In this document: piece by piece, positions 28,687 through 63,999 of the stretch
How positions within the stretch are numbered: position 1 is the stretch's first letter
Layout of the letters: each line of letters begins with the position of its first letter
Source: Oligoflexales bacterium
GTDB lineage: Bacteria; Bdellovibrionota_B; Oligoflexia; Oligoflexales; JAPPIL01
Length of the DNA stretch: 64,000 bases
Assembly: GCA_965215515.1 (NCBI GenBank)
Contig: OZ244057.1
Coordinates: 928,001 to 992,000, forward strand
Reading direction: 5' to 3'
Program-made: the position numbers and the translations under genes
Notes under the pieces: model-generated
Told to the model about the DNA's origin: nothing
Database searches by the model: none
Seen by the model: the letters and a program-made list of their open reading frames with translations, nothing else

Positions 28687-28711
28687 CCTCCATGAACTTT
28701 TGGGGAAGAGG

Positions 28712-31700
28712 ATGAAAAATGATGCTAAGCGATTGCTCTCCCTGTGGATGCTAGCACTCTGCCTCGCCTGCGGGGGAGATGATCTGGAGTCAGGCTCTAA
28801 GTTCATCAGCAAGACACAGCGAGATCGTGATGGGCATCCTAGCGGCAGCGATATCCACAGGTGTTATTATCGCGGCAACACAGTGGTCTGTGGCTTGCAT
28901 GGCAACGCCTATCTGATCAACAAAGTGCATGAAAAAGACCACCCCAACAGTTCTTCCGACGCACGCGACCCGCCTTACCTCGATATGACGGTCGAGGTGC
29001 AGGTCGGGTGGTGGGCGACTAAGCATGAAGATTGCGATAACCCTTGTATGACCGATGACAAAGTCACGGCGGGAGAATCTCCTGATCCTACCACATGCAC
29101 AAGCACTGACGAGGGGGCCGATCCCGCCAGCCCCGACGACGATACTGTAACTGAACATGACTGCACATGGCATTCCTGTCTGGGGGGAGTGAATGCCACC
29201 GAGGTGGTCAACGCGGCCATCGACAAGTGGCTCGCCCCACTGCGAACACCGTACAGCAGCACCGAGAACCCGATCATCAGTGGCGGTTATATCGACAACA
29301 CTGACCCCAAGGATGTGGCAGATCTGACAGTCAATTTTGCCTGCTCGCACTCTTCTCTTGCTTCAAAGATCCCCTGCCCGATCAGCTGCACGCGCTACCG
29401 AAATGCCTCCGGCGGCTACACCACTATCCCTAGCAGCGACGGTAGTTGCGACAAGGATAGCAGCGGAGCCTGCGCGCACAATCAGCCTGTCATCCAGCTC
29501 GGCGATGGCCGTTTACCCAAAGAGAATCACCGCGATACCTTGGGTGAGCACGACAAACTCAATTTGCTCCATGAGATCGGGCATGCCTTCGGCCTCGCCG
29601 ACACCCACGACGGAGGAGTAAGGATCGGCAAACAGCCGCGGGCGATCATGGCATGGGAGCGGATCGGGGAGCGGGGCAATAACGATTTGTTGCTCGGTAA
29701 AGACGACAAGGCAGGGGTGCAGTGGTTGTACGAGCACCATCGGCGCGGGCAACGCGAGCGTGACTGTCATTTCGACGAGTATGAGTACAACAGTAACACG
29801 GGACAGGAGGGTTGCGAGCCGCGCTATGTGTTGATCGTCACCCTGAAAAACCGCAACCACGGAGAGGCGGTGGTGATCATCGATACTGACCCTAACCTCG
29901 ACATCAACGAAGTCGAGGAGGAAACGGGCAACTCAGCCTTGCACTACGCCATCATCGAGCATGCTAATCCTATCAACACGGATGCGGATACGGCGGGCTA
30001 CCTGCTGGTCATTCAGGAATTGCTGGACTATGCAGGCATTAACCTTAACCTCAAGGATAAGACGACGGGCCGGACTCCTCTGCATCTGGCGGTACAGTTC
30101 AACCAGCAACGTATCGTCATTCTTCTTCTCGCCGCCGCGGGCATCTTGGTACAAACAGCAGATGACAAGCAGCAGACAGCCTTGCATTACGCCGCGAGCT
30201 TGGGTCACACGCATCTAATCAGTGCGATGCTGGCGAGTTTTGGCAGCCACGTAGAGGCACAGGACAGCGACGGCAAGACGGCGTTGCATCTGGCGGCAGC
30301 AAACGGACATGCCGACACCGTGAGTTTTTTCAGTGCCTACACGGGTGGCGGGATTGCTGCGCTAGCGGGGACGGAGGATAACGATGGCAACACGGCGTTA
30401 CATCTGGCGGCGGAAAATGGGCGCACGGATGTGGTGGCAGTGATTTTGCGCGCCGACCGCGGCAGGACGTTCTTAAACAGCACTAACGACCGTGATGAAA
30501 CCCCGCTGCATCTGGCGGCAAAGTTCGGTCGTGACGATGTGGTGGCGAGTTTGTTGCGACAGACAGATGTCGATATCAATCGGCAAGATGTCCAAGGCAA
30601 CACGCCTTTGCACCTCGCCGCACTGCATAACCGCCCTGCCGTCGTGCGTTTACTGCTCAACAAGAGCGGGATCGACACCACGATCAGCAACGGCAACGAC
30701 AAGACAGCACGTGACGAAGCGGTCAGTCACCGCCATACCGATGTTATCGACGTTTTCGATGGTGGCGATACCCTCTATGGCACGAGTTCTGCGGAACGGC
30801 TCATCCAGGCCTTGAAGGTAGGTAACATCGACCCAGACGAGTACTGCACCGCAGGCGATAGCGATTGCCGCCAGAAGTCGGCCTTAACGATTATGCGTAC
30901 CGATCAAAACCTCGATGTCAATTACACCGAGCCTAGCACAGGCAACACGGCACTGCACTACGCAGTACAGGGGGACGACCCTGTCGGCGCGGCCCGCGGC
31001 CCGTACGAGACGGTCGTCGATCTCCTCGTGCGCCGCACTTTGCTCAACCCCAACCTCAAGAACACCAACGGCGCGACCCCACTACATCTTGCCGTGCGGC
31101 ATGCAAAACTGGAAACGGTAAGGCTGTTGCTGGGCAATCGCCGCCTCGACGCTAATCTTACCAACAATGTCGGCGAAACTGCCCTACACATCGCTGTCGA
31201 TCTTGCCCATGAAAACATTCTCGCGGAGTTGCTGCGTTACCGTAGCGGCACAGTCGATGTCAATCTACAGGACGACACGGGACGTACACCGTTGCATATC
31301 GCTGCCGAGCAGCGCAATCCTGAGGTTGTTCAGATGTTGGTCGATGACCGCCGTGTCGATGTTAACCTCCGTACCCGCACCCACGACGAGACTGCCTTGC
31401 ACATTGCGGCTGAGTTCGACAACGACGAGGTTGTCGAGGTATTGCTGCGCGATGCTGACATCGATGTCAATCTACAGGATGCGACAGGTTCGACGGCCTT
31501 GCATAGCGCGGCTCATCACGGCAGTACGGCGGTGGTGACGCTGCTACTCGACGTGCCTAATATCGACCTGACTATTCTCGATAACCAGCAGCTCAGTGCT
31601 TATGGGCGCGCCGAAGCCAGCGGTTCGAATGATGTGGTGGAAATTTTTGACAACCTGGACAGGGGCGACGATGTTGTTTTCCGCGGCACGCTGATGGAGG

Positions 31701-33832
31701 AGTTGCGTGACAAGGGTAGCGGCGAAGATGTGGAAGATGTGGCTCTCGACATTCTCAATGACGACGAAGACGATCTCGACGTTAATGAAAGAGACCGTCG
31801 CAGTGGCAAGACTCCGCTGCATTATGCGGTCGAGTACGAGTATGCTCGTTTGCTTGCCGCTCTGTTGGCGCATCCTGACCTCCAGATTAATTTAAAAGAC
31901 GGGGAGGGCGAGACTGCTTTGCATCACGCGGTGCGTTTACAGCAGGCCAGCACGGTTACCGATTTGTTGCGGCATCGTGCTATCGAGGTCAATGCCACTG
32001 ATAGAGATGGCGATACTGCTCTGTTGCTCGCGGTGCGGGAGCAGGAACAGGCGATAGTTACCTTGCTAGCGCGGCATCGTGACATCGATGCGAACCGCAA
32101 AGACAGGGCGGGTGATACACCTCTGCTGCTGGCGGTGAAAAGCAAGAACGCTAATCTCGTGGGTATTTTGTTGCGTACTGCAGGCGTGGAGGTCAATTTG
32201 AAGGACGGTGATGGTGACGCTCCTCTGCACATCGCGATACGGGGCAGCGACACTCCTGTGGTGACACAGCTCGCCGCCGTCGCGGCCATCGAGGCCAACC
32301 ACAAAAACGCTGACGGCGACACGGCGCTGCACATTGCAGCTCGCAACAAAAAGAGCGGTCTGGTGCGCACCCTGCTGAGCATTGCGGGTATCGATGTCGA
32401 TGTGAAGGATCGCGGCAACAAGACTGCCCTTCATCTGGCGGTGGCTAAGCGCGATGCGGCTACGGTCACTCATCTGCTCGAGCATAGCAGTATTGACGTT
32501 AACGCGGTGGTAACGGGGGTTGAGGGTCGCACGGCGCTGCATCTCGCCATCGCGCAGCACATTGCGACCGACGAAGATTATAGTCGGGTCATCGATCTGT
32601 TGTTGGGGCATCTCGACATCGACGTTAACGTCAAGAACAGCCATCAGGAGAGTTTGCTGCTGCTGACGGTCAAGGAGGAGGAGACCGCGCTAATTACCAA
32701 ACTGTTGGCGCATGCGAACATCGAGGTTAACAGCAGCAACAGTCGGCAGAAAACTTCTTTGATGTTCGCGGCCGAGCGCGGCTCGCTTAACATTGTGCAT
32801 CAGTTGTTGGCGCATCGCGACATCGATGTCAATGTGCAGGACAACAAGCGTTTCACTGCTTTGCATTTTGCCGCGCATCACGGGCAGGTTGCTGTCGTGC
32901 GTGCGTTGCTGGCACATGCTGGTATCGACACTGCACTCAGAGACAGATGGAATTTAACTCCTCGCAAACGAGCGAAGGCTAGGGGACATACTGGGGTGGT
33001 GGCGGTGTTCGACGAGTATGAGGCAGGTAATGTCGGCAGTGCGGTAACTTTGTTGGCTGAGTTGGCGCGGGGCGATAGCGAGGAGAGTGTGCTGACTATT
33101 ATCGCGGCTAAGCGGGGCAACGTTGCCGTCAATGCTGTGGATGATAGCAATGCTTACACGGCACTGCACTATGCGGCGCGACGCGGTTATCTACGGGTAG
33201 TGAACGCTCTGTTGGATTACGACGCTATCGAGGTCAACGCAGCCAGTGCAGGGCTGGAGCGCCCCTTACATCTTGCCGCACGTGGGGGTCATGAGCGTGT
33301 TGTGCGTGCATTACTGGCGCACGGGAGGATTCAGATCAATGTCCGTGACAGTCGGGGGGTTACACCCTTGCATCGTGCGGTCGTCGGCGAGAATAATGCC
33401 CTGGTGCAGGCGTTGTTGGGGCATACGGGCATTCGTCCTACGCTCGCTACTAACAACGGCTACACGGCACTGCATTGGGCGGCGCAGCTCGGTTATGACG
33501 GTGTTGTGCGTCTCTTGCTCAACAAGCAGCCTCGGCTCATCAACATCAAGACGGTGCGGGGGCGCACGGCACTTTATTATGCCGCCTGGTTTGGGCACAC
33601 GTCCACTGTGCAGCAGCTGCTCAGGGAAACGGCTGTCAACGTGAATGCGCGCGACGAGGATGGCGATACTGCTTTGCATAAGGTCGCGGCGTACGATCGT
33701 CTTGCCGTCGCTCGTTTGTTGCTCGAGGCGGGAGCGAGCACGCAGATTAGCAATAAGAAGCGTGAGAGGGCGCGTGATATCGCGGAGGAGAGGGGATACG
33801 TGGAGATAGTGGCACTTATCGATAGTTATTGA
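28712..33832 (+). CDS. Large lipoprotein: metzincin-type metalloprotease domain plus about 34 ankyrin repeats
   Basis: Lipobox CLAC; HEIGHAFGLAD zinc motif with downstream AIM Met-turn; repeated G-x-T-[AP]-L-H-x-A units. Confidence 0.92.
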   Translation: MKNDAKRLLSLWMLALCLACGGDDLESGSKFISKTQRDRDGHPSGSDIHRCYYRGNTVVCGLHGNAYLINKVHEKDHPNSSSDARDPPYLDMTVEVQVGWWATKHEDCDNPCMTDDKVTAGESPDPTTCTSTDEGADPASPDDDTVTEHDCTWHSCLGGVNATEVVNAAIDKWLAPLRTPYSSTENPIISGGYIDNTDPKDVADLTVNFACSHSSLASKIPCPISCTRYRNASGGYTTIPSSDGSCDKDSSGACAHNQPVIQLGDGRLPKENHRDTLGEHDKLNLLHEIGHAFGLADTHDGGVRIGKQPRAIMAWERIGERGNNDLLLGKDDKAGVQWLYEHHRRGQRERDCHFDEYEYNSNTGQEGCEPRYVLIVTLKNRNHGEAVVIIDTDPNLDINEVEEETGNSALHYAIIEHANPINTDADTAGYLLVIQELLDYAGINLNLKDKTTGRTPLHLAVQFNQQRIVILLLAAAGILVQTADDKQQTALHYAASLGHTHLISAMLASFGSHVEAQDSDGKTALHLAAANGHADTVSFFSAYTGGGIAALAGTEDNDGNTALHLAAENGRTDVVAVILRADRGRTFLNSTNDRDETPLHLAAKFGRDDVVASLLRQTDVDINRQDVQGNTPLHLAALHNRPAVVRLLLNKSGIDTTISNGNDKTARDEAVSHRHTDVIDVFDGGDTLYGTSSAERLIQALKVGNIDPDEYCTAGDSDCRQKSALTIMRTDQNLDVNYTEPSTGNTALHYAVQGDDPVGAARGPYETVVDLLVRRTLLNPNLKNTNGATPLHLAVRHAKLETVRLLLGNRRLDANLTNNVGETALHIAVDLAHENILAELLRYRSGTVDVNLQDDTGRTPLHIAAEQRNPEVVQMLVDDRRVDVNLRTRTHDETALHIAAEFDNDEVVEVLLRDADIDVNLQDATGSTALHSAAHHGSTAVVTLLLDVPNIDLTILDNQQLSAYGRAEASGSNDVVEIFDNLDRGDDVVFRGTLMEELRDKGSGEDVEDVALDILNDDEDDLDVNERDRRSGKTPLHYAVEYEYARLLAALLAHPDLQINLKDGEGETALHHAVRLQQASTVTDLLRHRAIEVNATDRDGDTALLLAVREQEQAIVTLLARHRDIDANRKDRAGDTPLLLAVKSKNANLVGILLRTAGVEVNLKDGDGDAPLHIAIRGSDTPVVTQLAAVAAIEANHKNADGDTALHIAARNKKSGLVRTLLSIAGIDVDVKDRGNKTALHLAVAKRDAATVTHLLEHSSIDVNAVVTGVEGRTALHLAIAQHIATDEDYSRVIDLLLGHLDIDVNVKNSHQESLLLLTVKEEETALITKLLAHANIEVNSSNSRQKTSLMFAAERGSLNIVHQLLAHRDIDVNVQDNKRFTALHFAAHHGQVAVVRALLAHAGIDTALRDRWNLTPRKRAKARGHTGVVAVFDEYEAGNVGSAVTLLAELARGDSEESVLTIIAAKRGNVAVNAVDDSNAYTALHYAARRGYLRVVNALLDYDAIEVNAASAGLERPLHLAARGGHERVVRALLAHGRIQINVRDSRGVTPLHRAVVGENNALVQALLGHTGIRPTLATNNGYTALHWAAQLGYDGVVRLLLNKQPRLINIKTVRGRTALYYAAWFGHTSTVQQLLRETAVNVNARDEDGDTALHKVAAYDRLAVARLLLEAGASTQISNKKRERARDIAEERGYVEIVALIDSY

Positions 33833-35210: not shown

Positions 35211-35401
35211 GGTAAGGGTTCTTCCCCGTAAAGCGGTTACCTAACGCCTATACTAACCGCGTGGGACTGACGGGTCAACTAGCATGGATGATTGTGGCGC
35301 AAGTCAAGACACAGCCCTGGCACAATTGCCCGCCCTCTTCCGCGGCAAGGTAGCGCTCGACCACATTTTTAGGAAATTATATCAAATACTTGCAGAAAAT
35401 G

Positions 35402-35430
35402 TTGACTATAAGCACGAAAAGCGACATAAT
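35402..35430 (+). promoter_or_regulatory. Sigma-70 promoter, near-leaderless
   Basis: TTGACT-N17-CATAAT ending 9 nt before ATG 35440; no SD visible. Confidence 0.55.
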
Positions 35431-35439
35431 TTACCTGTC

Positions 35440-36609
35440 ATGATCAATAGAACAGTCAAGCCTTCTAAATTCCAGAGTTTTTTCTTGTTCGGGGCACGTG
35501 GAACGGGTAAATCTACCTTGCTACGGCGGTTACTGTCAGTACGTGAGCATTTCTGGGTTGGCTTGCTGGAAGCAGAGACAGAGGCACGTTATCTCAACGC
35601 ACCGCAGTTGTTATTGCAAGATTGGCAGAAAGCCAGTGCCAAACAACGGCAGAACAACTGGGTAGTTATCGACGAAGTGCAGAAGGCACCGCGTCTCCTT
35701 GATGTGGTACATCTTGCCATAGAGAGGCATGGCATCAATTTCGCCATGACTGGCTCCAGTGCGCGCAAATTGCGGCGTGGTGCGGCTAATTTACTGGCGG
35801 GGCGGGCCGTCACCTTTGCCCTATATCCCTTTAGTGCGCGAGAGCTTGGTTTGCAGTTTGATCTCGATGATGCCCTTAATTTTGGGATGTTACCACGTGC
35901 TGTGGCTTTGCGCGACGAAAGTACCGAACGCAAGCGTTTTCTACATAGCTACGTCAATACCTATTTGCGTGAGGAGGTGCAAGCCGAAGGCTTCCTGCGT
36001 AAGTTTGCTCCCTTTCGTAGTTTTTTACAAATTGCTGCCAGTGCTAGTGCCACAGTCCTGAACATATCTTTGCTGGCGCGCCAAACTGGTGTCGATAAGA
36101 GTACCGTGCAAAGATATTTCAGTATTCTGGAAGACACCTTGATCGGTTTTTACTTGCCTGCTTTTAGTCGTAGCACTCGCATGGCTTATACCAAGCATCC
36201 CAAGTTTTATTTTTTTGATACAGGTGTTGCACGAGCCGCGTCATTGTCTCTCGATACCTATCTACGCCCAGCTACCTATGAATTCGGACGCTTTTTTGAA
36301 CATTTTGTCGTGTTGGAAATTATCAAAGAAAACTCTGCACACGAAAAGGGCTACGAGTTTTTTTGCTTCCGCACCGATAGGGGGGCAGAGATCGATATCA
36401 TTGCCAATAAAGGCAGGCAGACACTGGCGATCGAAATCAAATCCACTCCCACACCAGACATCACTGCCATCCGTAAACTCGCCCGCTTAAGCAAGAGCAT
36501 TGCCAACTGCCAGCCATGTATTTTTTGTCGCACCACAACACCTTCCCTAGTTGAAGGTGTGCACGTTATGCCTTGGCAGCAGGGGATTGCGGAATTTTTC
36601 AGCTGCTGA
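35440..36609 (+). CDS. AAA_14 ATPase with DUF4143 domain
   Basis: GARGTGKS, IDEVQK, TGSSARKL, LLAGRA, KFYFFDTG, EID..., IEIK. Confidence 0.92.
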   Translation: MINRTVKPSKFQSFFLFGARGTGKSTLLRRLLSVREHFWVGLLEAETEARYLNAPQLLLQDWQKASAKQRQNNWVVIDEVQKAPRLLDVVHLAIERHGINFAMTGSSARKLRRGAANLLAGRAVTFALYPFSARELGLQFDLDDALNFGMLPRAVALRDESTERKRFLHSYVNTYLREEVQAEGFLRKFAPFRSFLQIAASASATVLNISLLARQTGVDKSTVQRYFSILEDTLIGFYLPAFSRSTRMAYTKHPKFYFFDTGVARAASLSLDTYLRPATYEFGRFFEHFVVLEIIKENSAHEKGYEFFCFRTDRGAEIDIIANKGRQTLAIEIKSTPTPDITAIRKLARLSKSIANCQPCIFCRTTTPSLVEGVHVMPWQQGIAEFFSC

Positions 36610-36641: not shown

Positions 36642-36794
36642 TCACTCTTCTTTTTTCAGTTCACCCCAGGTGGTAGTTTGTTTGTCTTTTGCCACGACAG
36701 GCATAGCTTTGGGATGGGCGGCGATGAGTGCGGCGATGCGTGCCAGACCGAGCTGGCGGGCGAGGTCTAGTGCGCTGTGCCCGTCTATACCGCA
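36642..36794 (-). pseudogene. 3' fragment of an ankyrin-repeat gene carrying the C-terminal TTTWGELK motif
   Basis: Manual translation CGIDGHSALDLARQLGLARIAALIAAHPKAMPVVAKDKQTTTWGELKKEE*; in-frame stop immediately upstream, no start. Confidence 0.7.
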
Positions 36795-36815: not shown

Positions 36816-36947
36816 TCACTGTTCCCCCCGCCGTGCCTGTGCCAAGAAAGCATGATAACGCGGCAGCGCCAAGGCTCCCAAAATGCCGATAATCGCCACC
36901 GCGACCATCAACTCCACCAAACTTAAACCCGCCTTCGTCCGCACCAC
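36816..36947 (-). pseudogene. Truncated type IV pilin (N-terminal helix only)
   Basis: Manual translation (V)VRTKAG|LSLVELMVAVAIIGILGALALPRYHAFLAQARRGEQ*: class III signal with E5, stops after 43 aa. Confidence 0.8.
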
Positions 36948-37116
36948 TTCCCTTTTTTTGGCTAAAAACAAAACTCCCCCAGGCGAACTCCATCGGCGTT
37001 TTTTTTCGCTTTAGTTATGTTGCAAAAACCCTAAAATTACAATTGTCTGTCTGCAATATTGAGGGAGAGAGGGGGGAAGAAGAAATGGGGCAGCTACACA
37101 TTGATCGTGCGCCAAA

Positions 37117-38811
37117 TCAGCCAGATATTGTCTTTCTTGCAATATATTTATTGTGAATGTGTTCTATATGGTATGGGGCGTTCTTTGCGATCGGTTCGTT
37201 AAGATCTACCGTTACGTCGTAGAATTCTGCCGATGCCTGGTGTCCCGCATCACGATATATCGCCGCTAACGTCTTCCTGGTTTTTTCGTCAGTGCTGTCG
37301 AGAAAGAATGCCAAGCGCAGTTTTTTAAAAGCTTCTGTTTCGTTGCTCGCCAGTAACTTTTGTGCCTCTCTTCGTAATTTCGTTGCTTCTTTACTAAAGT
37401 CAAAGAGACTCTCTCCATCATAGAGCTTCTCGCTACTGCTAAGCAGTGCAGTCCTTTGAGTAGAGTCAAGCTCGTGAAAGCCTGCGTCACGCAACCTTGC
37501 GGCAACCCGCAGCATTTTGTAGTGATTGAGCACCCCCGCGCCATCGACCTGGCTGGTACTGTGGATGCTCGTGCGGGTAGCAGTTTTTTGCAGCATGATA
37601 ACCGCTTCATCCCGACTCAGATCTGGAAGGATACTCATGGTGTCGGCAAGCGCACCAGTGACCATCGGGGTTGCTCCACTCGTACCACCGAAGCGAGTAA
37701 GCGTACCTCCTATCTCAGACACTTGGAAAGTATCAGCAGGTGCAAGCACGATTACTTTTTCCGATACTTGCGAAAATTCGCTAGGAAAACCCCCAGGATC
37801 AGCACTGCCTACCGTGATAATTTCGTCTCCGAGATTAGCAATTATCTTATCATCACCAGAGAGTGGAAAGTCATTGCCGACACCCTTAATGAAAATAGTT
37901 TTACGAAGACCGACCTCTTCCTTTGCTTTAGCAATATCTTCCAACCCCACTCCAAGTCCCCCCAGCGATACGTTGACGAGATCGGGTTCTACTGCGAGGC
38001 TATTTTCCGAAAATGTTGTTTCCTCCCGTAATGAAAAAATATCAGATCCTCGGTTATCAGCTCGCACATGAGTTACTTTTCCCCTGGAAGACACTCCCAC
38101 AGGAGCTTCCCCCAATATAATACCAAGTACCTTCGCAGCATGATTGTCATTGCCATTATTTCGAAAATAGTTATCCATTATGTCCGACCAGTTACTATCG
38201 ACAGACAGATCGTCGTGCATTCTTGAACGCATTGTTTCACTCATCACACTAGGAGGCGTAAAGCCTCCGTCTATGATGGCTATATTAGAATCAACCAAGT
38301 CAAGTTTCTTTCCTATCTTCTCCATCAGCATTCTTGCCTCAGGTGTTCCAGTTGCTTCTTGTGCCCAAAAAACGTTAAGCCGCGAAGAAAACTTCGGTAA
38401 TCCCAAGTTATGCGGAGGACGCAGTCCTAGTCTGGCGATACTTCGCTCATAAGTGTATCTATCTTCATACTCAATTATGCCGTAGTCCTTGCTGTACAGG
38501 TTCAGTATTTTTTCACGGTCAAGACTTTGTACTACACCTTCACCTTTTCCTACAGTTTTTCCAGCCTTCCCTAGTGCCTCTTTTTCTCGTGCCGCTTTTT
38601 CTAGTGCTTCTTCCAGTGCCTTGTTTTTGGCGGCTTTACGTTTACCGATAACCACCGCCGTCACCGCTACCACAACCGTTGCGACAATCAGCGCGACGGA
38701 CTTCCAGCGGGCGCGCTGATCTTCCTCCGCTTCACTGTCCGCAGCAAAACCTGGAGTAACCGATAACGACACCGTGAGAATAACTGCAATTAGCCTCTTA
38801 CAAAGCACCAT
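37117..38811 (-). CDS. S8 subtilase-family serine peptidase with signal+TM leader
   Basis: IIDGGF (Asp), NHAAKVLGII (His), GND (oxyanion Asn), GGTSGATP (Ser); AAGGAGG RBS; AT-richer than flanks. Confidence 0.88.
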   Translation of the reverse strand: MVLCKRLIAVILTVSLSVTPGFAADSEAEEDQRARWKSVALIVATVVVAVTAVVIGKRKAAKNKALEEALEKAAREKEALGKAGKTVGKGEGVVQSLDREKILNLYSKDYGIIEYEDRYTYERSIARLGLRPPHNLGLPKFSSRLNVFWAQEATGTPEARMLMEKIGKKLDLVDSNIAIIDGGFTPPSVMSETMRSRMHDDLSVDSNWSDIMDNYFRNNGNDNHAAKVLGIILGEAPVGVSSRGKVTHVRADNRGSDIFSLREETTFSENSLAVEPDLVNVSLGGLGVGLEDIAKAKEEVGLRKTIFIKGVGNDFPLSGDDKIIANLGDEIITVGSADPGGFPSEFSQVSEKVIVLAPADTFQVSEIGGTLTRFGGTSGATPMVTGALADTMSILPDLSRDEAVIMLQKTATRTSIHSTSQVDGAGVLNHYKMLRVAARLRDAGFHELDSTQRTALLSSSEKLYDGESLFDFSKEATKLRREAQKLLASNETEAFKKLRLAFFLDSTDEKTRKTLAAIYRDAGHQASAEFYDVTVDLNEPIAKNAPYHIEHIHNKYIARKTISG

Positions 38812-38856
38812 AGAAAGCCTCCTTACTCGTCTTACCAAGGGCGACTACCAAGGGTG

Positions 38857-39517: not shown

Positions 39518-41314
39518 TTAGGGGTGAAGCTGCTTTGCTGCGTCTACGTAACTGCGAATATATAGGTGCAGTCCTTCTACCATATTAGTAGCTAGCTGCG
39601 GGTCGAAAAGTGGGTGAAAGATCGCTTCGAGTTGTGCCGTTGTGATGCTGTCTAAACGAGCAATAAAATCAGCATCGGTGTAAAATGCTTTACTATTTTC
39701 ACGCAACTCCTCAAAGTGCCGACCATACAGGCCTTGGTCGACACGGGGATAATCAAAAGCTTGTTCTGAGTCAATACTTATAAGTCTTCCGGCAATAGGA
39801 TTAATCTTATTATCGTAGTAACCAGATCGGTCGCGGTCCCCTGTCAATAAAAAGAAAGTCCTGTTTCTGGTCGTAATGTGGTGGGTTTCAGAGGAGATGT
39901 CTTTGCCAATCAGTTCGAGATAACTCTTGTATTGTTTGTGGAAGTCGTCACCCATACCGTTGATGAACAACTGCACTGCTCCTTTGTAATTACCTATCTT
40001 TAGTGGCACCGTGATAGGGAAAACATGCAGGCCCAGCAACTGGTCTAATCTGTATGCTGCAATTTCCCGTTGTGGCCAAGCAACAAGACGTTCTTCTGGT
40101 GAGTGAGTACTTTTATATACTCCCTTCAAACCACTGCTGAATTCAAGCAACAGAGGTTTAGTAAATCCTCCAGGCAAGGTATCTTTGCTAATTATTTTAT
40201 CGTTCATCAGCACATCTTCTATTATTTTTTTCATCGCCGTAGCTTCAGAGGTGAACCCACGCTCAGCTAATTTCCAGATAACTTCCTGTAGATTACCGAG
40301 TTTTACCAAAGCAGTTAACTCGCTGTTGATCGTTGTGCTGTTAATGATTGTAGATATTTTCTCAGCCAGCTCAGGAGCATATTTCACTTCAGGCAGACCG
40401 TCAGTTAAATTCTTGGTGACATCGTATATGTTGTGCCAATATTCAAGAGAGTGCTTATGCTCATCCTCAAGTTTATGTATAGCTGAGTACTTTGGATATT
40501 TTTTGTCAAAATCAGTGTTGATTTTACGAATATGATCTTCGCGAATTTGCCACTCACTATGATGATACAGTCCCTTTATCTTATCAATTTGTGCGTCTCG
40601 CTGTGTGATTGCCGTTGCTATTTCTTCAGATGAGTGGGAGTCAGGATATTGCTGGTGGATTGCTGCTAATTTTTTGGCTTTTTCAATTTCTAAAGCCGCT
40701 ACCCTTCCCTCGTAGATACCACGTAAATCTGCGACACTCATTTTTTTGCCATCTTGCGCTTCTAGTTGTAAAGCCTTACCGTGTTCAATAGTTGAGGTAT
40801 GTTTTCTGACCAGCGCCGCGGTGTACTCTTTGGCTTCGCGTATTTTTTCAGCCTTACGTGCCGCTTCCTCCAGCGCAAGTGCTTCTTTTTTACGTGCCGC
40901 TTCCTCCAGCGCAAGTGCTTCCTTTTCTTCAGCTATGCGTATTTTTTCAGCCTTACGTGCCGCTTCCTCCAGCGCAAGTGCTTCTTTTTTACGTGCCGCT
41001 TCCTCCAGCGCAAGTGCTTCCTTTTCTTCAGCTATGCGTATTTTTTCAGCCCTACGTGCCGCTTTTTCTAGTGCTTCTTTTTCTCGTGCCGCTTTTTCTA
41101 GTGCTTCTTTCAGTAACTTACTCTTAGCGGCTTTACGTTTACCGATAACCACCGCCGTCACCGCTACCACAACCGTTGCGACAATCAGTGCAACGGACTT
41201 CAAGGGGGCGCGTGGATCTTCCTCTGCTTCACTGTCCGCAGCAAAACCTGGAGTAACCGATAACGACACCGTAAGGACAAATACAATTAGCTTGGTCATG
41301 ATCTGCCTTCCCAT
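39518..41314 (-). CDS. Protein with signal+TM leader, coiled-coil repeats and C-terminal PI3/PI4-kinase-like atypical kinase domain
   Basis: GVYK, REIAAYRLDQLLGL, GAVQLF, DRDR...N and ISIDSEQAF kinase-like motifs. Confidence 0.75.
   Translation of the reverse strand: MGRQIMTKLIVFVLTVSLSVTPGFAADSEAEEDPRAPLKSVALIVATVVVAVTAVVIGKRKAAKSKLLKEALEKAAREKEALEKAARRAEKIRIAEEKEALALEEAARKKEALALEEAARKAEKIRIAEEKEALALEEAARKKEALALEEAARKAEKIREAKEYTAALVRKHTSTIEHGKALQLEAQDGKKMSVADLRGIYEGRVAALEIEKAKKLAAIHQQYPDSHSSEEIATAITQRDAQIDKIKGLYHHSEWQIREDHIRKINTDFDKKYPKYSAIHKLEDEHKHSLEYWHNIYDVTKNLTDGLPEVKYAPELAEKISTIINSTTINSELTALVKLGNLQEVIWKLAERGFTSEATAMKKIIEDVLMNDKIISKDTLPGGFTKPLLLEFSSGLKGVYKSTHSPEERLVAWPQREIAAYRLDQLLGLHVFPITVPLKIGNYKGAVQLFINGMGDDFHKQYKSYLELIGKDISSETHHITTRNRTFFLLTGDRDRSGYYDNKINPIAGRLISIDSEQAFDYPRVDQGLYGRHFEELRENSKAFYTDADFIARLDSITTAQLEAIFHPLFDPQLATNMVEGLHLYIRSYVDAAKQLHP
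40838..41062. repeat. Tandem 99-bp coding repeat (2 identical copies plus a partial one, with 36-bp subrepeats)
   Basis: Units start at 40838, 40937 and 41036; each encodes IAEEKEALALEEAARKKEALALEEAARKAEKIR. Confidence 0.92.
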
Positions 41315-58639: not shown

Positions 58640-59557
58640 ATGAAAATTTTGAGCCTGCTACTCGCATTAACCCTGTCGGCACAATCCCAGGGACAAACAC
58701 AACAACTCGCACGGCAACATCTGCCTCCCTGGAGCAAAAAACTGATAAGTGTCGCCATCGCCAGTGGCCTACTGCTATCATCACCAGTGATGGCACAGGA
58801 ACTACCGCTGAACGCTCAGTTCACCACAACCACCCGCGCCGAACACCTGTCCGTGCTCAACCTCATGTTTATCTCCAACGGAAGACAACGCTCGGGCTAC
58901 TTCGCTTATGTCGGACAAGACCCACAGAATCGCGCCCTCCTCCTCGGCTTGCGACTCAGTGTCACCATCATTCCCTTCGTCGAGGCTGAACTGGTTATCA
59001 ACGCTGACGGAGCAGAGACACTGATCTTCAACCACGAAGGTCTCGCCCTGCGCACCGCAGCAGTGGAGGAAAAACAAGCGTTCCTGCGCCCCGATGTCGA
59101 GCTGGCGAGACTCTACGATATGACCCTGCTCGCCCTAGACGGACTCACGACACAAGACTACCATGCCGTGCAAGTGGGGGCTTTTCCGCCCACAACAACA
59201 CCGCTAGACATCGTCGTCTATCGCACCGACCTACTGCTAGATCCTGGTAAAGACGTGGACTGGGTGGCAGTATACAGCAACGCACCGCTCGCACAAGAAA
59301 AGTGCGTGGCTACCAGCTTCACGCCAGAGCTGTGGTCGGCAAACGGCAACTGTACTACGGGTAGATTTGCTGTGTCGACAACCGCACCGATCTTCACCGC
59401 CGACGACGGCGAACTGGTCGCTTTTGCCTTCTCCGCTACAGAGATGATAGTCATCCCTCCAGAAGTACAAACATACGTGCAAGAAGCACTCGCCATCAAC
59501 TCTACCCAGAAACTCTCCACCACCTGGGGAGCGATCAAGAAAAGAGGAGCACACTGA
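58640..59557 (+). CDS. Secreted hypothetical protein, degenerate trypsin-like fold, C-terminal KLSTTWGAIK
   Basis: Two successive signal-like segments; paralogous to the next gene (GQD, LLxxxGLT, VQxxxFP, C...C, IF). Confidence 0.75.
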   Translation: MKILSLLLALTLSAQSQGQTQQLARQHLPPWSKKLISVAIASGLLLSSPVMAQELPLNAQFTTTTRAEHLSVLNLMFISNGRQRSGYFAYVGQDPQNRALLLGLRLSVTIIPFVEAELVINADGAETLIFNHEGLALRTAAVEEKQAFLRPDVELARLYDMTLLALDGLTTQDYHAVQVGAFPPTTTPLDIVVYRTDLLLDPGKDVDWVAVYSNAPLAQEKCVATSFTPELWSANGNCTTGRFAVSTTAPIFTADDGELVAFAFSATEMIVIPPEVQTYVQEALAINSTQKLSTTWGAIKKRGAH

Positions 59558-60561
59558 TGCGCTGGCTGTTGATATTGACAATTCTAGGGAGCGGAACACA
59601 AACGACACAGGCACGCAACTTGGAGATGTGGCGTAGCAGCTGGCGACAAGTAACCGCTGGTGCAGCACTCATGCTCGCCCTGCCACTGTCCAGCACGGCC
59701 GTGTGGGCACAGAATAGGGGAGGAGAAAATGCCCCTGACAGACAACAAAGCCCCCTGCCAAGAGAAACACGTTGGCACAAAGTTTTTGCAAGATCACCCG
59801 CCGAGTTTCGCTCCGTGATGAACTTGCAAATGGTCACCCCCCACAGCCGTCGCCTAGTCGGACACCTGATCTACCTGGGACAGGATCGTAACGATGAGGC
59901 CATGTTCATCACCATGCACAGCTCCCCCACACTCTACGCACCAGCGAACGGAGAGACCGAGCAAAATACTCTCTACTACATACTACAGGACTGGGACGGG
60001 ACGGTATGGGAAGATGTTAGCCTCGAACTCATCCACCTCTTCCCCACTACCGCACTCGATTTCTACGGTCTCTCGCTGCTCAAAATCACAGGACTCACAC
60101 AGCACGAACTTACCCCCGTGCAACTGGCAGGATTTCCCTACCAAACATCACCACTGAACCAACTCGGTTACTTCGCTGACGACGCTGCATCCTCGCCCGA
60201 ACTGGCCGCAGCCAACGCCGAGCACGACGACAACGCCATCGCTCACGCGGAACTGTCTCTCTACTGGCAACGCTGTCAAGCAGGCACGTTCGATCACGAA
60301 ACACAACTGGGAACAAACACCTGCGCCTCCTTCCCTACCTCCACGACACAAGGAGAAGCCATTTTCAATGCGCTGACACTGAAAGCCGTCGGCTTCTACC
60401 TGATCAAAGCTGCCCCAGATCCTACCCATGTCGTTGTTCACAAACGTATGGTGCTGGGCTTCGCACCCGCAGTACGTGCTCAAGTAGAGGCACTGGTGAG
60501 CGTCAGCCCCCGCCACAAACTGCCGCTTACCTGGGGAACACTAAAAGATACACAACAGTAA
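59557..60561 (+). CDS. Secreted hypothetical protein, degenerate trypsin-like fold, C-terminal KLPLTWGTLK
   Basis: TGATG coupling to the upstream paralog; GAGGAG RBS; same architecture. Confidence 0.75.
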   Translation: MRWLLILTILGSGTQTTQARNLEMWRSSWRQVTAGAALMLALPLSSTAVWAQNRGGENAPDRQQSPLPRETRWHKVFARSPAEFRSVMNLQMVTPHSRRLVGHLIYLGQDRNDEAMFITMHSSPTLYAPANGETEQNTLYYILQDWDGTVWEDVSLELIHLFPTTALDFYGLSLLKITGLTQHELTPVQLAGFPYQTSPLNQLGYFADDAASSPELAAANAEHDDNAIAHAELSLYWQRCQAGTFDHETQLGTNTCASFPTSTTQGEAIFNALTLKAVGFYLIKAAPDPTHVVVHKRMVLGFAPAVRAQVEALVSVSPRHKLPLTWGTLKDTQQ

Positions 60562-61652: not shown

Positions 61653-62798
61653 TCAAAACAATCGCCCGCGCCACAGCTCGAGTAGAAAAGTTTGCCAATG
61701 CACAAGGTGAAATACGCCGTGTTTGCGGTTCATGCGATCTTGACTAACCAGGTAGAATTTTTGGAATACGCCCTCCTCGGACAATGCCCGCAAACCCTTG
61801 AGATCCCTTGTGGAGGTGTTGGTGGCAGCTTTGACTTCGATCGCAAGTTCCTTCCCAACAAGAAAGTCAACCTCATGCCCATAGCGAGAACGCCAGAAAT
61901 GCAGCTCTGTCATGTGCTTGCGTGTGTAAGACAGATAGGCACGCAATTCCATCAAGATAAACAGCTCGAAACTTTTCCCATAGAGAGTTGTCATGCGTTC
62001 GGTGTGTTCTATGCCAGCCAGCACACGTGCCACACCTGGATCGAAAAGATAAAATTTTGCGGTCGCGGTGGCCTTCCTGCTGCGTGATGCTCGCCAGGGC
62101 GGCAGTGTTATCCCCAATAAGGTATCCTCCAAAACCTGCACATACTCTCTGACGGTAGATGCCGCGACCTGACAGTCACGGCTGAGCCCGTTGTAGTTAA
62201 TCAACTCGCAGTTTGCTAGCGCCATCGTGCGCAAGAAGCGGGTGAAGGGCGGCAGCTGCCGCACAATGCCCTCCTCACGAATTTCTTCTTTCAGGTAAAC
62301 GGAAATGTAGGCGTTGAGTTCTTCATCTGGATCTTTCCCTGCATAGACGGCTGGCAAACCACCGTAGTGAAGATAACGATCTAAATCGAAGACATCTATC
62401 TCGGCAGACGTGAGAGGAAGAAGCTGTGCTAACCACGCACGACCCGCCAACAGGTTAGTCCCGCCACGCCGTAACTTACGCATGCTGCTGCCAGTGAGCA
62501 AAAAACGCACCCCACCCCTCTCGATCAAACGATGCACACTGTTAAGCAACTGAGGTAGGCGCTGAATCTCATCGATGGCTACAATCCCCTGCTTCGCACG
62601 TACCACCGTCGCCTCTAGACGCTCAGGCTCGGCAGCAAATTCAAGCAAAACCCTCTCATCGAGCAAATCGATAAGAATCGCCTGATCACGCAGCTGTTGC
62701 GCAATGAGGGTAGACTTGCCTACCGCCCGCGGGCCGAAGAGAAAGAACGATTTCTTCGCCAACAACCGCGGCAGGCTGAGGTAACGTGCAATCATCAT
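61653..62798 (-). CDS. AAA_14 ATPase with DUF4143 domain
   Basis: GPRAVGKS, IDEIQR, TGSS, LLAGRA, KFYLFDPG, EVDF, IEVK. Confidence 0.92.
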   Translation of the reverse strand: MMIARYLSLPRLLAKKSFFLFGPRAVGKSTLIAQQLRDQAILIDLLDERVLLEFAAEPERLEATVVRAKQGIVAIDEIQRLPQLLNSVHRLIERGGVRFLLTGSSMRKLRRGGTNLLAGRAWLAQLLPLTSAEIDVFDLDRYLHYGGLPAVYAGKDPDEELNAYISVYLKEEIREEGIVRQLPPFTRFLRTMALANCELINYNGLSRDCQVAASTVREYVQVLEDTLLGITLPPWRASRSRKATATAKFYLFDPGVARVLAGIEHTERMTTLYGKSFELFILMELRAYLSYTRKHMTELHFWRSRYGHEVDFLVGKELAIEVKAATNTSTRDLKGLRALSEEGVFQKFYLVSQDRMNRKHGVFHLVHWQTFLLELWRGRLF

Positions 62799-62910
62799 AC
62801 TATGCCTATTCTTACCCAATTTTGCCGCGAAATAAACACCCCTATCGTTAATTTTACCGAAAAAATAGCGATAGAGTTGTGCGTTTGCAGGGTGAGGGGT
62901 AGATTCCCCT

Positions 62911-63999
62911 CTAAACCTCCTCGCCTTCGACCTTGTCGACACGGGTGAAACCCGCCACTTTCTCGCCGTCATCGATATTCATAATCCGTACACCTTGCGT
63001 GACACGGCCGATAACTCCCACCTCGCTGACGTTGAAACGAGTAATCTTGCCCGCCGAAGTGATGATCACCAAATCATCGCTGTCCTCCACCAACGTCACG
63101 CCGACAACAGGGCCGTTACGTTTCGTGACCTTGATGGTATAAACACCCTTGCCACCCCGTGACTGCTGACGATACTCGTCCAACGTCGTGCGTTTGCCAT
63201 AACCGTTCTCGCACACAGAGAAAACCGTTCCCCTGCCACTGATGACCTCCATGCCAATGGCATAGTCACCATCTTCGCCAAAACGCATGCCCGTCACACC
63301 GCGCGAAGCACGCATCATCGGGCGCACACCACACTGATCGAAACGAATCGCCTTCCCCAGCCGCGAAGCAACCAGTACCTGATCGCCTTCCTCAACCAAC
63401 GCACACTTGATCAACGTATCGCCCTTGTCGAGCTTCAACCCGATAATCCCCGTCGCCCGCACGTTGGCATAGGCCGTCAATAACGTCTTTTTGACCATGC
63501 CCTTCGTGGTGCAAGACAACACATAAGTATCCTCCGTAAACTCACGCACGGGCAACACCGAGACGATCTTCTCGCCCCTCTTCAGCCCGATCATATTAGC
63601 GAAGTGCTTGCCTTTGGCGCGCAAATTTCCCTCAGGCATCGAAAACACCCGCAGGTTGTAAACCCGCCCCTCATTGCTGAAACATAACAGATGACAGTGG
63701 TTAGTAGTCTGGAACAAATCCTTGACGACATCCTCCTCCCTCGTCAGAATGCCGCTCTTGCCCTTGCCCCCCCGCCGCTGCGCCCGCACCTGCGCCAACG
63801 GAGTGCGTTTCGCATAGCCACCGAAGGTGATCGTCAACACCACCTCCTCGTCAGCCACCAAACTCTCCATGGTCAACTCGTCGGCCTTCTCCCCGATAAC
63901 CTCCGTGCGCCGCTCGTCACCATACTTCTCCCGAATCTCCGCCAACTCATCCTTGATAACCTGCACCACCCGCTGGGGATCATCGAGAATACCCTGATA
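62911..63999 (-). CDS. gyrA: DNA gyrase subunit A, 3' part (5' end outside the window)
   Basis: YGDERRT, GyrA-box QRRGGKG, beta-pinwheel repeats; frame is open to the window end. Confidence 0.96.
   Translation of the reverse strand, partial: YQGILDDPQRVVQVIKDELAEIREKYGDERRTEVIGEKADELTMESLVADEEVVLTITFGGYAKRTPLAQVRAQRRGGKGKSGILTREEDVVKDLFQTTNHCHLLCFSNEGRVYNLRVFSMPEGNLRAKGKHFANMIGLKRGEKIVSVLPVREFTEDTYVLSCTTKGMVKKTLLTAYANVRATGIIGLKLDKGDTLIKCALVEEGDQVLVASRLGKAIRFDQCGVRPMMRASRGVTGMRFGEDGDYAIGMEVISGRGTVFSVCENGYGKRTTLDEYRQQSRGGKGVYTIKVTKRNGPVVGVTLVEDSDDLVIITSAGKITRFNVSEVGVIGRVTQGVRIMNIDDGEKVAGFTRVDKVEGEEV

Follow-up and report, generated by a model that had tools for sequence, protein, structure and literature searches.

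A short C-terminal TWG tail on exported proteins of an Oligoflexales bacterium and of Poribacteria: a candidate sorting signal with a possible link to type IX secretion

Tail-bearing genes and their remnant in the window

The window, a stretch of 64,000 nucleotides, comes from a genome of 2.18 Mb in one contig (G000, the source genome). Two overlapping genes on its plus strand, and one gene remnant on its minus strand, end in a similar stretch of about 20 residues, termed here the TWG tail. The features concerned are listed below.

28700..33832, plus strand: distant family-B relative of 1710 aa with an HExxH domain and many ankyrins, no tail (sequence comparison)
36642..36794, minus strand: pseudogene remnant without a start codon, covering the final ankyrin helix and the TWG tail of a family-B gene (83-92% DNA identity to the 3' ends of intact family-B genes)
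36816..37010, minus strand: what is left of the 5' end of a type IV pilin gene, the usual upstream neighbour of family-B genes (DNA 89-92% identical to the heads of intact pilin genes)
58640..59557, plus strand: family-A gene 1, 305 aa, with two predicted signal peptides, a triad-less trypsin-fold body and the TWG tail (ORF, structure model, Foldseek)
58640..58693, plus strand: predicted first signal peptide of gene 1, residues 1 to about 18 (sequence, home-made heuristic)
58694..58795, plus strand: predicted second signal peptide of gene 1, residues 19-52, with a basic stretch, a hydrophobic core and a P-V-M-A/Q end, the slash marking the predicted cut (home-made heuristic; the homologous segment is the sole leader in some Poribacteria copies)
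59492..59557, plus strand: TWG tail of gene 1, residues 285-305, and stop (profile scan, alignment)
59557..60561, plus strand: family-A gene 2, 334 aa, paralogue of gene 1 with the same layout (ORF, alignment)
59614..59709, plus strand: predicted second signal peptide of gene 2, residues 20-51 (home-made heuristic)
60499..60561, plus strand: TWG tail of gene 2, residues 315-334, and stop (profile scan)

The three C-termini that a sequence-only reading of this DNA had quoted were all found in place when the sequence was read directly. That reading had placed them on unrelated proteins. The motif does occur on unrelated folds, but the genes at 58640 and 59557, the second of which starts at the stop of the first (59557), are paralogues (29% identity, E 2.8e-10), and therefore the window displays two body families, not three. 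Likewise, the ankyrin copy at 36642 carries the motif on a different fold, as claimed, but is a pseudogene remnant and not a protein. Judged from its matches to intact genes, it is a collapsed cassette, in which an internal deletion has joined the 5' end of a pilin gene to the 3' end of a family-B gene. Two related AAA-ATPase genes, which from their look we take to be DUF4143-like, lie at 35284-36609 (+) and 61653-62972 (-) of the window, one of them adjoining the collapsed cassette. Searches of three window pieces against Pfam and NCBIfam gave nothing above cut-off, a protein atlas gave no usable match, and no RNA run containing the window was found.

Family A consists of three genes in the source genome, namely the two described above and one outside the window. 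The structure model of gene 1 (mean pLDDT 80.8) exhibited a two-barrel chymotrypsin fold, with at least 500 PDB matches at E<=0.001, the top ones being trypsin-fold proteins (Foldseek, E ~1e-7). No conserved His or nucleophile motif of a His-Asp-Ser triad was found in 19 family-A sequences, with columns assigned by sequence pattern. In the model, the tail was predicted as a loose linker followed by a short helix of about 7 residues (W296-R302), with a pLDDT of about 55 as compared with >90 for most of the core, which argues against the tail being an integral structural element of the body. K291, W296, and K300 of the tail account for three of only nine invariant columns among the 19 proteins, and paralogues with only 18-25% identity keep the tail K, W, and K, which points to selection.

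Family-A proteins start with a signal peptide, which is followed by a basic stretch and then by another signal-like segment with an A-x-A-type site at its end. This tandem leader was detected by a home-made heuristic in 21 of 27 family-A proteins, and by eye in most of the others, as compared with 2 of 195 signal-bearing proteins of Poribacteria loci. Since the basic residues precede the second segment, it resembles a signal peptide, unlike a stop-transfer anchor, in which they follow. Elsewhere in the window, two genes at 37117-38838 and 39518-41314 (-) have N-terminal leaders that are nearly identical (a signal, then an acidic spacer, a hydrophobic helix and a basic run), while their bodies differ; one body is subtilase-like.

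Family B is a lipoprotein with a zinc site, ankyrins and the tail, and its gene sits behind a type IV pilin gene. The HExxH motif with a third ligand (HExGHxxGLxD) was present in all 13 tail- or CTD-bearing full-length copies of the source genome, by which motif family B is a putative zinc metalloprotease. Among the 14 close full-length genes, 11 end in the tail, two in a dockerin and CTD, and one has lost the tail. The tail-less relative at 28700 serves as an internal control, indicating that the tail is a detachable module.

Position, copies and distribution of the tail

The consensus of the tail is [APS]-V-[ED]-[PA]-x-x-K-L-x-T-T-W-[GA]-x-[LI]-K followed by 1-6 residues. In a six-frame profile scan of the whole source genome, 17 tails scored above 32 bits (32.9-53.4 bits) and the next-best, non-tail match scored 15.0 bits; the motif is thus not limited to the three loci of the window. 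All 17 tails end 2-6 residues ahead of a stop. The profile had been seeded with nine of these same 17 tails, and a second profile built from 68 tail rows (A1) recovered the same 17 copies. In addition, among 1774 crudely called genes, 14 had the independent pattern K-x4-W-[GADS]-x-[LIVMF]-K no more than 8 residues from the stop, as compared with 0.08 terminal matches expected by chance and two internal matches observed. The source-genome tails ride on two unrelated exported families, A and B.

The sequence-only reading had mentioned a very similar tail, of the AVxPxxKLxTTWGxIK type, in Poribacteria, and this proved correct: profile A1 found the tail in all 176 genomes of the Poribacteria phylum, with at least 113 copies in one of them. 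A pattern scan of 185,579 species genomes gave at least 140 stretches. Among the matches listed, 123 were titled Poribacteria and 10 'uncultured bacterium'; of the remaining stretches, two hold family-A genes and five look like chance. The pattern lay within 8 residues of the stop in 135 of the 139 distinct matches among those listed. Profile A1 also matched 571 of 1.84 billion protein representatives, and 142 of the best 150 have the tail within 8 residues of the end, in line with the strict C-terminal position seen in the source genome. The bodies in Poribacteria include LamG, CBM4/9, CBM9, 3-keto-disaccharide hydrolase, HmuY, WD40, Kelch, and phosphatase domains, which together with the ankyrin and trypsin bodies bear out the suggestion that the tail moves independently of the body. 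As judged by eye and by the home-made heuristic, carriers in families A and B and in Poribacteria bear N-terminal export signals.

In contrast to its presence throughout Poribacteria, the tail was found in only 4 of 131 genomes of the source bacterium's own phylum, all four being those of its family (G000-G003, 4/4), and the profile search found none in the other 127. Viral contigs gave 22 stretches with 19 in-frame matches, four of them terminal. Three of the four lie on full-length signal-bearing proteins (L467, L469, and L481), which are phage genes or host DNA, and the matches other than these three are chance-like.

The LPXTG, PEP-CTERM, and GlyGly-CTERM tags are short mobile C-terminal motifs found on many folds, and they need a transmembrane helix and a basic cluster. 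The TWG tail, in contrast, has no transmembrane helix or any helix long enough to be one, and merely 1-6 residues follow W-G-x-[LI]-K. None of the 68 tails matched any NCBIfam model, so that no known sorting family could be assigned, and a literature search, mainly of openly available papers, found no description of the tail. These results support the reading of the tail as an unnamed C-terminal export or sorting signal.

The tails of the source family are not identical to those of Poribacteria. Their median scores were 36.7 bits (family A) and 31.0 bits (family B), as compared with 51.3 bits for a Poribacteria set picked by a strict pattern (5th percentile 38.6 bits) and 43.1 bits for Poribacteria family-B tails. 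Position -4 is Leu in 93% of the Poribacteria tails, whereas it is K or Q in 87% of the family-B tails of the source family. By these comparisons, the tails of the source family have drifted from the Poribacteria consensus and score below the level of the putative host.

Gene exchange with Poribacteria

The 16S rRNA of the source genome is 76% identical to a Poribacteria 16S. In a RecA comparison that stands in for a named marker tree, two of the best 120 matches have names down to order or genus, one being Oligoflexus sp. and the other an Oligoflexales bacterium (73% identical). The source genome is therefore not that of a Poribacterium, and the tail carrier is likely an Oligoflexales bacterium, a small-genome relative of predatory bacteria. 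Three sequencing runs that contain the window, all from one study that may include the source itself, also contain contigs of 532-606 bases about 94% alike to Poribacteria 16S. A further run, X5 (share 0.17), was compared with the 16S gene alone and is left out of this count. The bacterium would live in a sponge. Motif probes had given the impression that most biosynthesis was missing; they were contradicted by family searches, which found accA and fabF in 4/4 and purM in 2/4 family genomes, and were therefore dropped. The metabolic dependence of the family is slight.

Both body families are found in all four genomes of the source family, as compared with 11 of 176 Poribacteria genomes for family A, where they fall in 3-4 separate places of an unrooted tree, and 40 of 176 for family B. 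A single Poribacteria contig of 5.54 Mb has up to 15 family-B matches among ordinary genes. On a complete Poribacteria chromosome, an array of about 14 family-B genes (L333-L334; G301:C1:66700-92700) lies between a TPR gene and unrelated genes, its members ending in the tail, in a dockerin only, or truncated. In three Poribacteria genomes (G292, G205, and G224; L362, L363, L364, L370, L371, and L373), families B and A are fused in one chain of 622-706 aa that runs from protease and ankyrins to trypsin fold and tail. The VirB4-like protein of a conjugative element in the source genome had no match in the 176 Poribacteria genomes, in a search run without a positive control.

The tail was present on 110 of the best 120 family-B homologues. 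Family-B trees were built from a set of 110 rows and from a subset of 44 picked from that set, the latter tree being rooted. In both, the earliest branches are tail-less rows of the own phylum and of the family, and the two phyla are intermingled in the crown. In the rooted tree, the starred branches force at least 10 label changes, and a single Poribacteria clade was rejected (p-AU 3.7e-7). The root suggests that the family-B body came from the Oligoflexales side; directions within the crown are not settled by the tree. One cross-phylum family-B pair has 86.8% DNA identity over 962 bases, starting just past the signal peptide. These results indicate, at the level of sequence, that genes have been exchanged repeatedly between the source family and Poribacteria, giving direct support to the earlier suggestion that the tail is shared with, or mimics that of, a co-resident or prey lineage.

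An assembly or binning artefact that mixed contigs of Poribacteria and Oligoflexales would give the same appearance, and some Poribacteria carriers are indeed fragmented bins, and CTD matches in other Oligoflexales (see below) look like contamination or weak matches. The source genome, however, is one contig, the family-B copies of the 5.54-Mb contig sit among ordinary genes, and the copies differ by lineage in their signals, those of Poribacteria having an ordinary signal peptide (SPI) where the source family has a lipobox. We therefore consider an artefact extremely improbable.

The tails might also be passengers, functionless in the source family, on genes that came from abundant neighbours in a shared habitat. 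Whole genes are often exchanged, the source genome contains tail remnants and one tail-less copy, and the scores of its tails are below host level, all as expected for passengers. Against this, the source family is where both bodies either root or show their greatest diversity, so that they were not simply imported; K, W, and K persist while the bodies drop to about 20% identity; and 19 of 32 family-B rows from the source family have the tail, with 3 of 32 having a CTD. These findings make the passenger explanation very unlikely.

Relation to type IX secretion and possible readers of the tail

Two family-B genes of the source genome carry, at the tail junction, a module in which a dockerin-like pair is followed by a helical linker and then by a type A CTD of type IX secretion (T9SS). 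The module matches TIGR04183 above cut-off as well as PF13860 and PF00404. The same family-B CTD form was found in a second genus of the family. Compared over about 200 aa with its five closest counterparts in one Poribacteria genome, the CTD module of the family showed 55-59% identity. In G001 and G002, tails were found but no CTD. A tail-like linker with W replaced by L was seen by eye in 3 of 23 CTD-upstream regions, of which a strict pattern flagged two.

CTD matches in five other own-phylum genomes had raised the idea that other Oligoflexales borrow the CTDs of prey. They were inspected and set aside: the G021 matches lie on contigs of 31-38% GC with Bacteroidota-type proteins, those in three genomes are weak matches in unrelated proteins, and the fifth genome, G005, is ambiguous. 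Wider borrowing of CTDs among Oligoflexales is therefore unsupported. Two lipoproteins have the Poribacteria-type dockerin-like motif of the CTD module, with neither CTD nor tail (G000:C1:639164-640156, L483, where it directly follows the lipobox, and L267:6615-8330 in G001).

The type A CTD of T9SS (TIGR04183, PF18962/PF13860; available text of PMC12618676 and PMC5562754) shares with the tail a Sec signal combined with an extreme C-terminal tag, unrelated cargo and the lack of a membrane helix. Moreover, the tail replaces the CTD in family B, can form a pre-CTD linker, and opens with a triplet, [APS]-V-[ED], that resembles a PorU site: cleavage of T9SS cargo is described with a small residue at +1 and Ile at +2 (PMC11969387, in part), and V occupies the second position in 96% of Poribacteria tails and 80% of those of the source family, a likeness in sequence. 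In contrast, the CTD has 70-100 residues, a seven-strand sandwich and motifs B, D, and E, whereas the tail has about 20 residues, forms coil and a short helix, and contains none of the motifs; the fold matching TIGR04183 is found in the two CTD-ending family-B genes, not in the tail. The short CTDs of Prevotella intermedia, as far as the available part of PMC11969387 goes, have shrunk to 40-55 residues and are still cleaved. However, they keep three strands and motifs B, D, and E, through which PorV binds even these shortest known CTDs, and the tail, half as long, has none of these. Without the strands and motifs that PorV binds, the tail falls outside the type A family, although it may work in the same way.

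The machinery itself was found in Poribacteria. PorV was detected in 61/61 genomes, and matches to peptidase C25 (PorU-like), PorV, and SprA were all present in 2/2 genomes. An earlier study of TIGR04183 in Poribacteria (PMC3909097, 2014) reported the CTD and did not find structural Por genes; the short tail is not mentioned in its available text. Two of the Poribacteria genomes, G031 (L263 and L264) and G032 (L272 and L273), each encode two C25 proteins of PorU type, both about 2000 aa long, as well as several PorV-like barrels. One PorU-like/PorV-like pair of Poribacteria could serve the short tail. A predicted complex of the tail with one of at least four Poribacteria PorV-like paralogues scored 0.01 and is not counted as evidence.

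In contrast, no PorU-, PorV-, or SprA-like genes were found in the family genomes G000-G002 (0/3; 91-94% complete), which were searched for these T9SS families, and no PorP/SprF in G000-G003 (0/4), the search in G003 being for PorP/SprF only. A profile made from Poribacteria PorV gave no match in the source genome (best E 3.1). Type II secretion and type IV pilus systems are present there.

We favour, with a probability of about one half, the reading in which the tail serves as a minimal sorting tag linked to T9SS and is removed by a cut at its start. A likely parasite or predator of Poribacteria would have borrowed this tag, and the machinery of the host would read it; the reliance on Poribacteria is proposed because the search for T9SS families found no such machinery in the family itself. 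Three steps are envisaged. First, since the first three residues of the tail match the sortase site (a small residue, then I/V), a cut there would remove the tail, leaving the protein either released or tied to surface LPS. Second, the family would live on or in Poribacteria, where family-B lipoproteins, encoded behind variable pilins, would offer the tail or CTD to the surface shuttle and the sortase of the host, the latter being located at the surface (PMC5562754, in part). Family B would thus act from outside at attachment, docking and bringing a protease to the host coat. Third, signal 1 of family-A proteins would be removed in the Sec system of the parasite itself; the proteins would then leave by the parasite's type II system and use signal 2 and the tail to cross the host inner and outer membranes. 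Having no triad, they would be binders or decoys, not enzymes. Because the family-B lipoprotein has no second signal, the second and third steps need two different locations.

Several findings weigh against parts of this proposal. As a T9SS tag, the tail would have to work without the beta-strands and motifs described above. As to reading by the host, G001 and G002 carry tails without any CTD, the tails have drifted, and the metabolic dependence is weak.

With respect to the third step, Poribacteria family-A copies in G220 and G222 have no signal 1 but still contain the segment that corresponds to signal 2, whereas the copy in G258 retains both. The G220 and G222 copies have ATC where a relative has ATG, making the start codon doubtful, and may therefore be dead. 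Furthermore, 25 of 28 heuristic matches to the tandem leader in the source genome, some of them false, are on tail-less proteins, so that signal 2 may be a leader used throughout the lineage. Among the proteins of the source genome with such leaders are orphans in which the first signal peptide and basic stretch precede a second segment ending in a lipobox-like Cys (G000:C1:792926-796824, 1014360, 1249100, and 2070837), and an LD-carboxypeptidase (S66; G000:C1:1955468-1956571, L443), a member of a usually cytoplasmic family. One tail-less tandem-leader protein (917626) had no match in the 176 Poribacteria genomes, a search that likewise had no positive control.

The tail could instead be a sorting signal read by the source family itself, through an unrecognised protein outside T9SS gained from Poribacteria, with no part for host machinery. 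The conservation of tails on all deep family-A branches, with a family-specific flavour, would be explained in this way, as would the closest cross-phylum pair, in which the bodies are 82% identical and yet each tail is of its own lineage's type. Such a reader would leave unexplained why a full Poribacteria CTD occurs on family B in two genera in which no PorV, PorU, or SprA was found. In addition, ORFs from 15 regions around Poribacteria T9SS genes matched the source genome, among the matches listed, only through the CTD or through genes that look ordinary from their sequence starts, judged without annotation. A reader of the family's own is therefore unlikely.

Alternatively, the tail could anchor itself in both lineages without any enzyme, as a short amphipathic helix with W and L/I on one face and flanking Lys, on the membrane or LPS. 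Such an anchor needs no machinery, fitting the absence of one in the source family, and the predicted helix after a loose linker is consistent with it. However, that helix is just about 7 residues long, the strongly conserved positions -10 (V, 96%) and -5 (K, 100%) fall outside it, and a signal known to be cleavable is found both in place of the tail and directly behind it, which together make a self-acting anchor quite unlikely.

A stronger form of the T9SS-linked reading is also conceivable, and we regard it as tentative and, on balance, doubtful. The family would be a dedicated parasite inside Poribacteria cells whose proteins bear three-part addresses: its own signal peptide for exit, a second signal for the host Sec system, and the TWG tail or CTD for the host outer membrane, where the host sortase would sew them onto the surface. 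Repeated infection would have scattered its genes through Poribacteria chromosomes, and the tail would represent an undescribed class of T9SS signal on dozens to more than 100 proteins per Poribacteria genome.

Parasites of eukaryotes use effectors with host targeting signals and bipartite leaders, nested signals that the parasite reads before the host does. In contrast to those systems, both partners here would be bacteria, and our literature search found no bacterium-bacterium case of such nested signals.

Overall, what is new here is the tail beyond Poribacteria, limited within the own phylum to the source family, its swap with a T9SS CTD, the cross-phylum exchange of family-B genes, and the predicted tandem leader of family A. 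T9SS core genes are placed in Poribacteria, where the 2014 study, in its available text, found none (PMC3909097), and the swap of tail and CTD within one gene family provides a natural comparison for future tests. Should the tail be a T9SS signal, then at about 20 residues it would be the shortest known, and would name the export route for the large secretome of Poribacteria, a dominant sponge symbiont. If the borrowing is real, a bacterium that uses the secretion addresses of another phylum would be new in kind; it would single out a particular partner or enemy of Poribacteria and would account for the recent gene flow between the two phyla.
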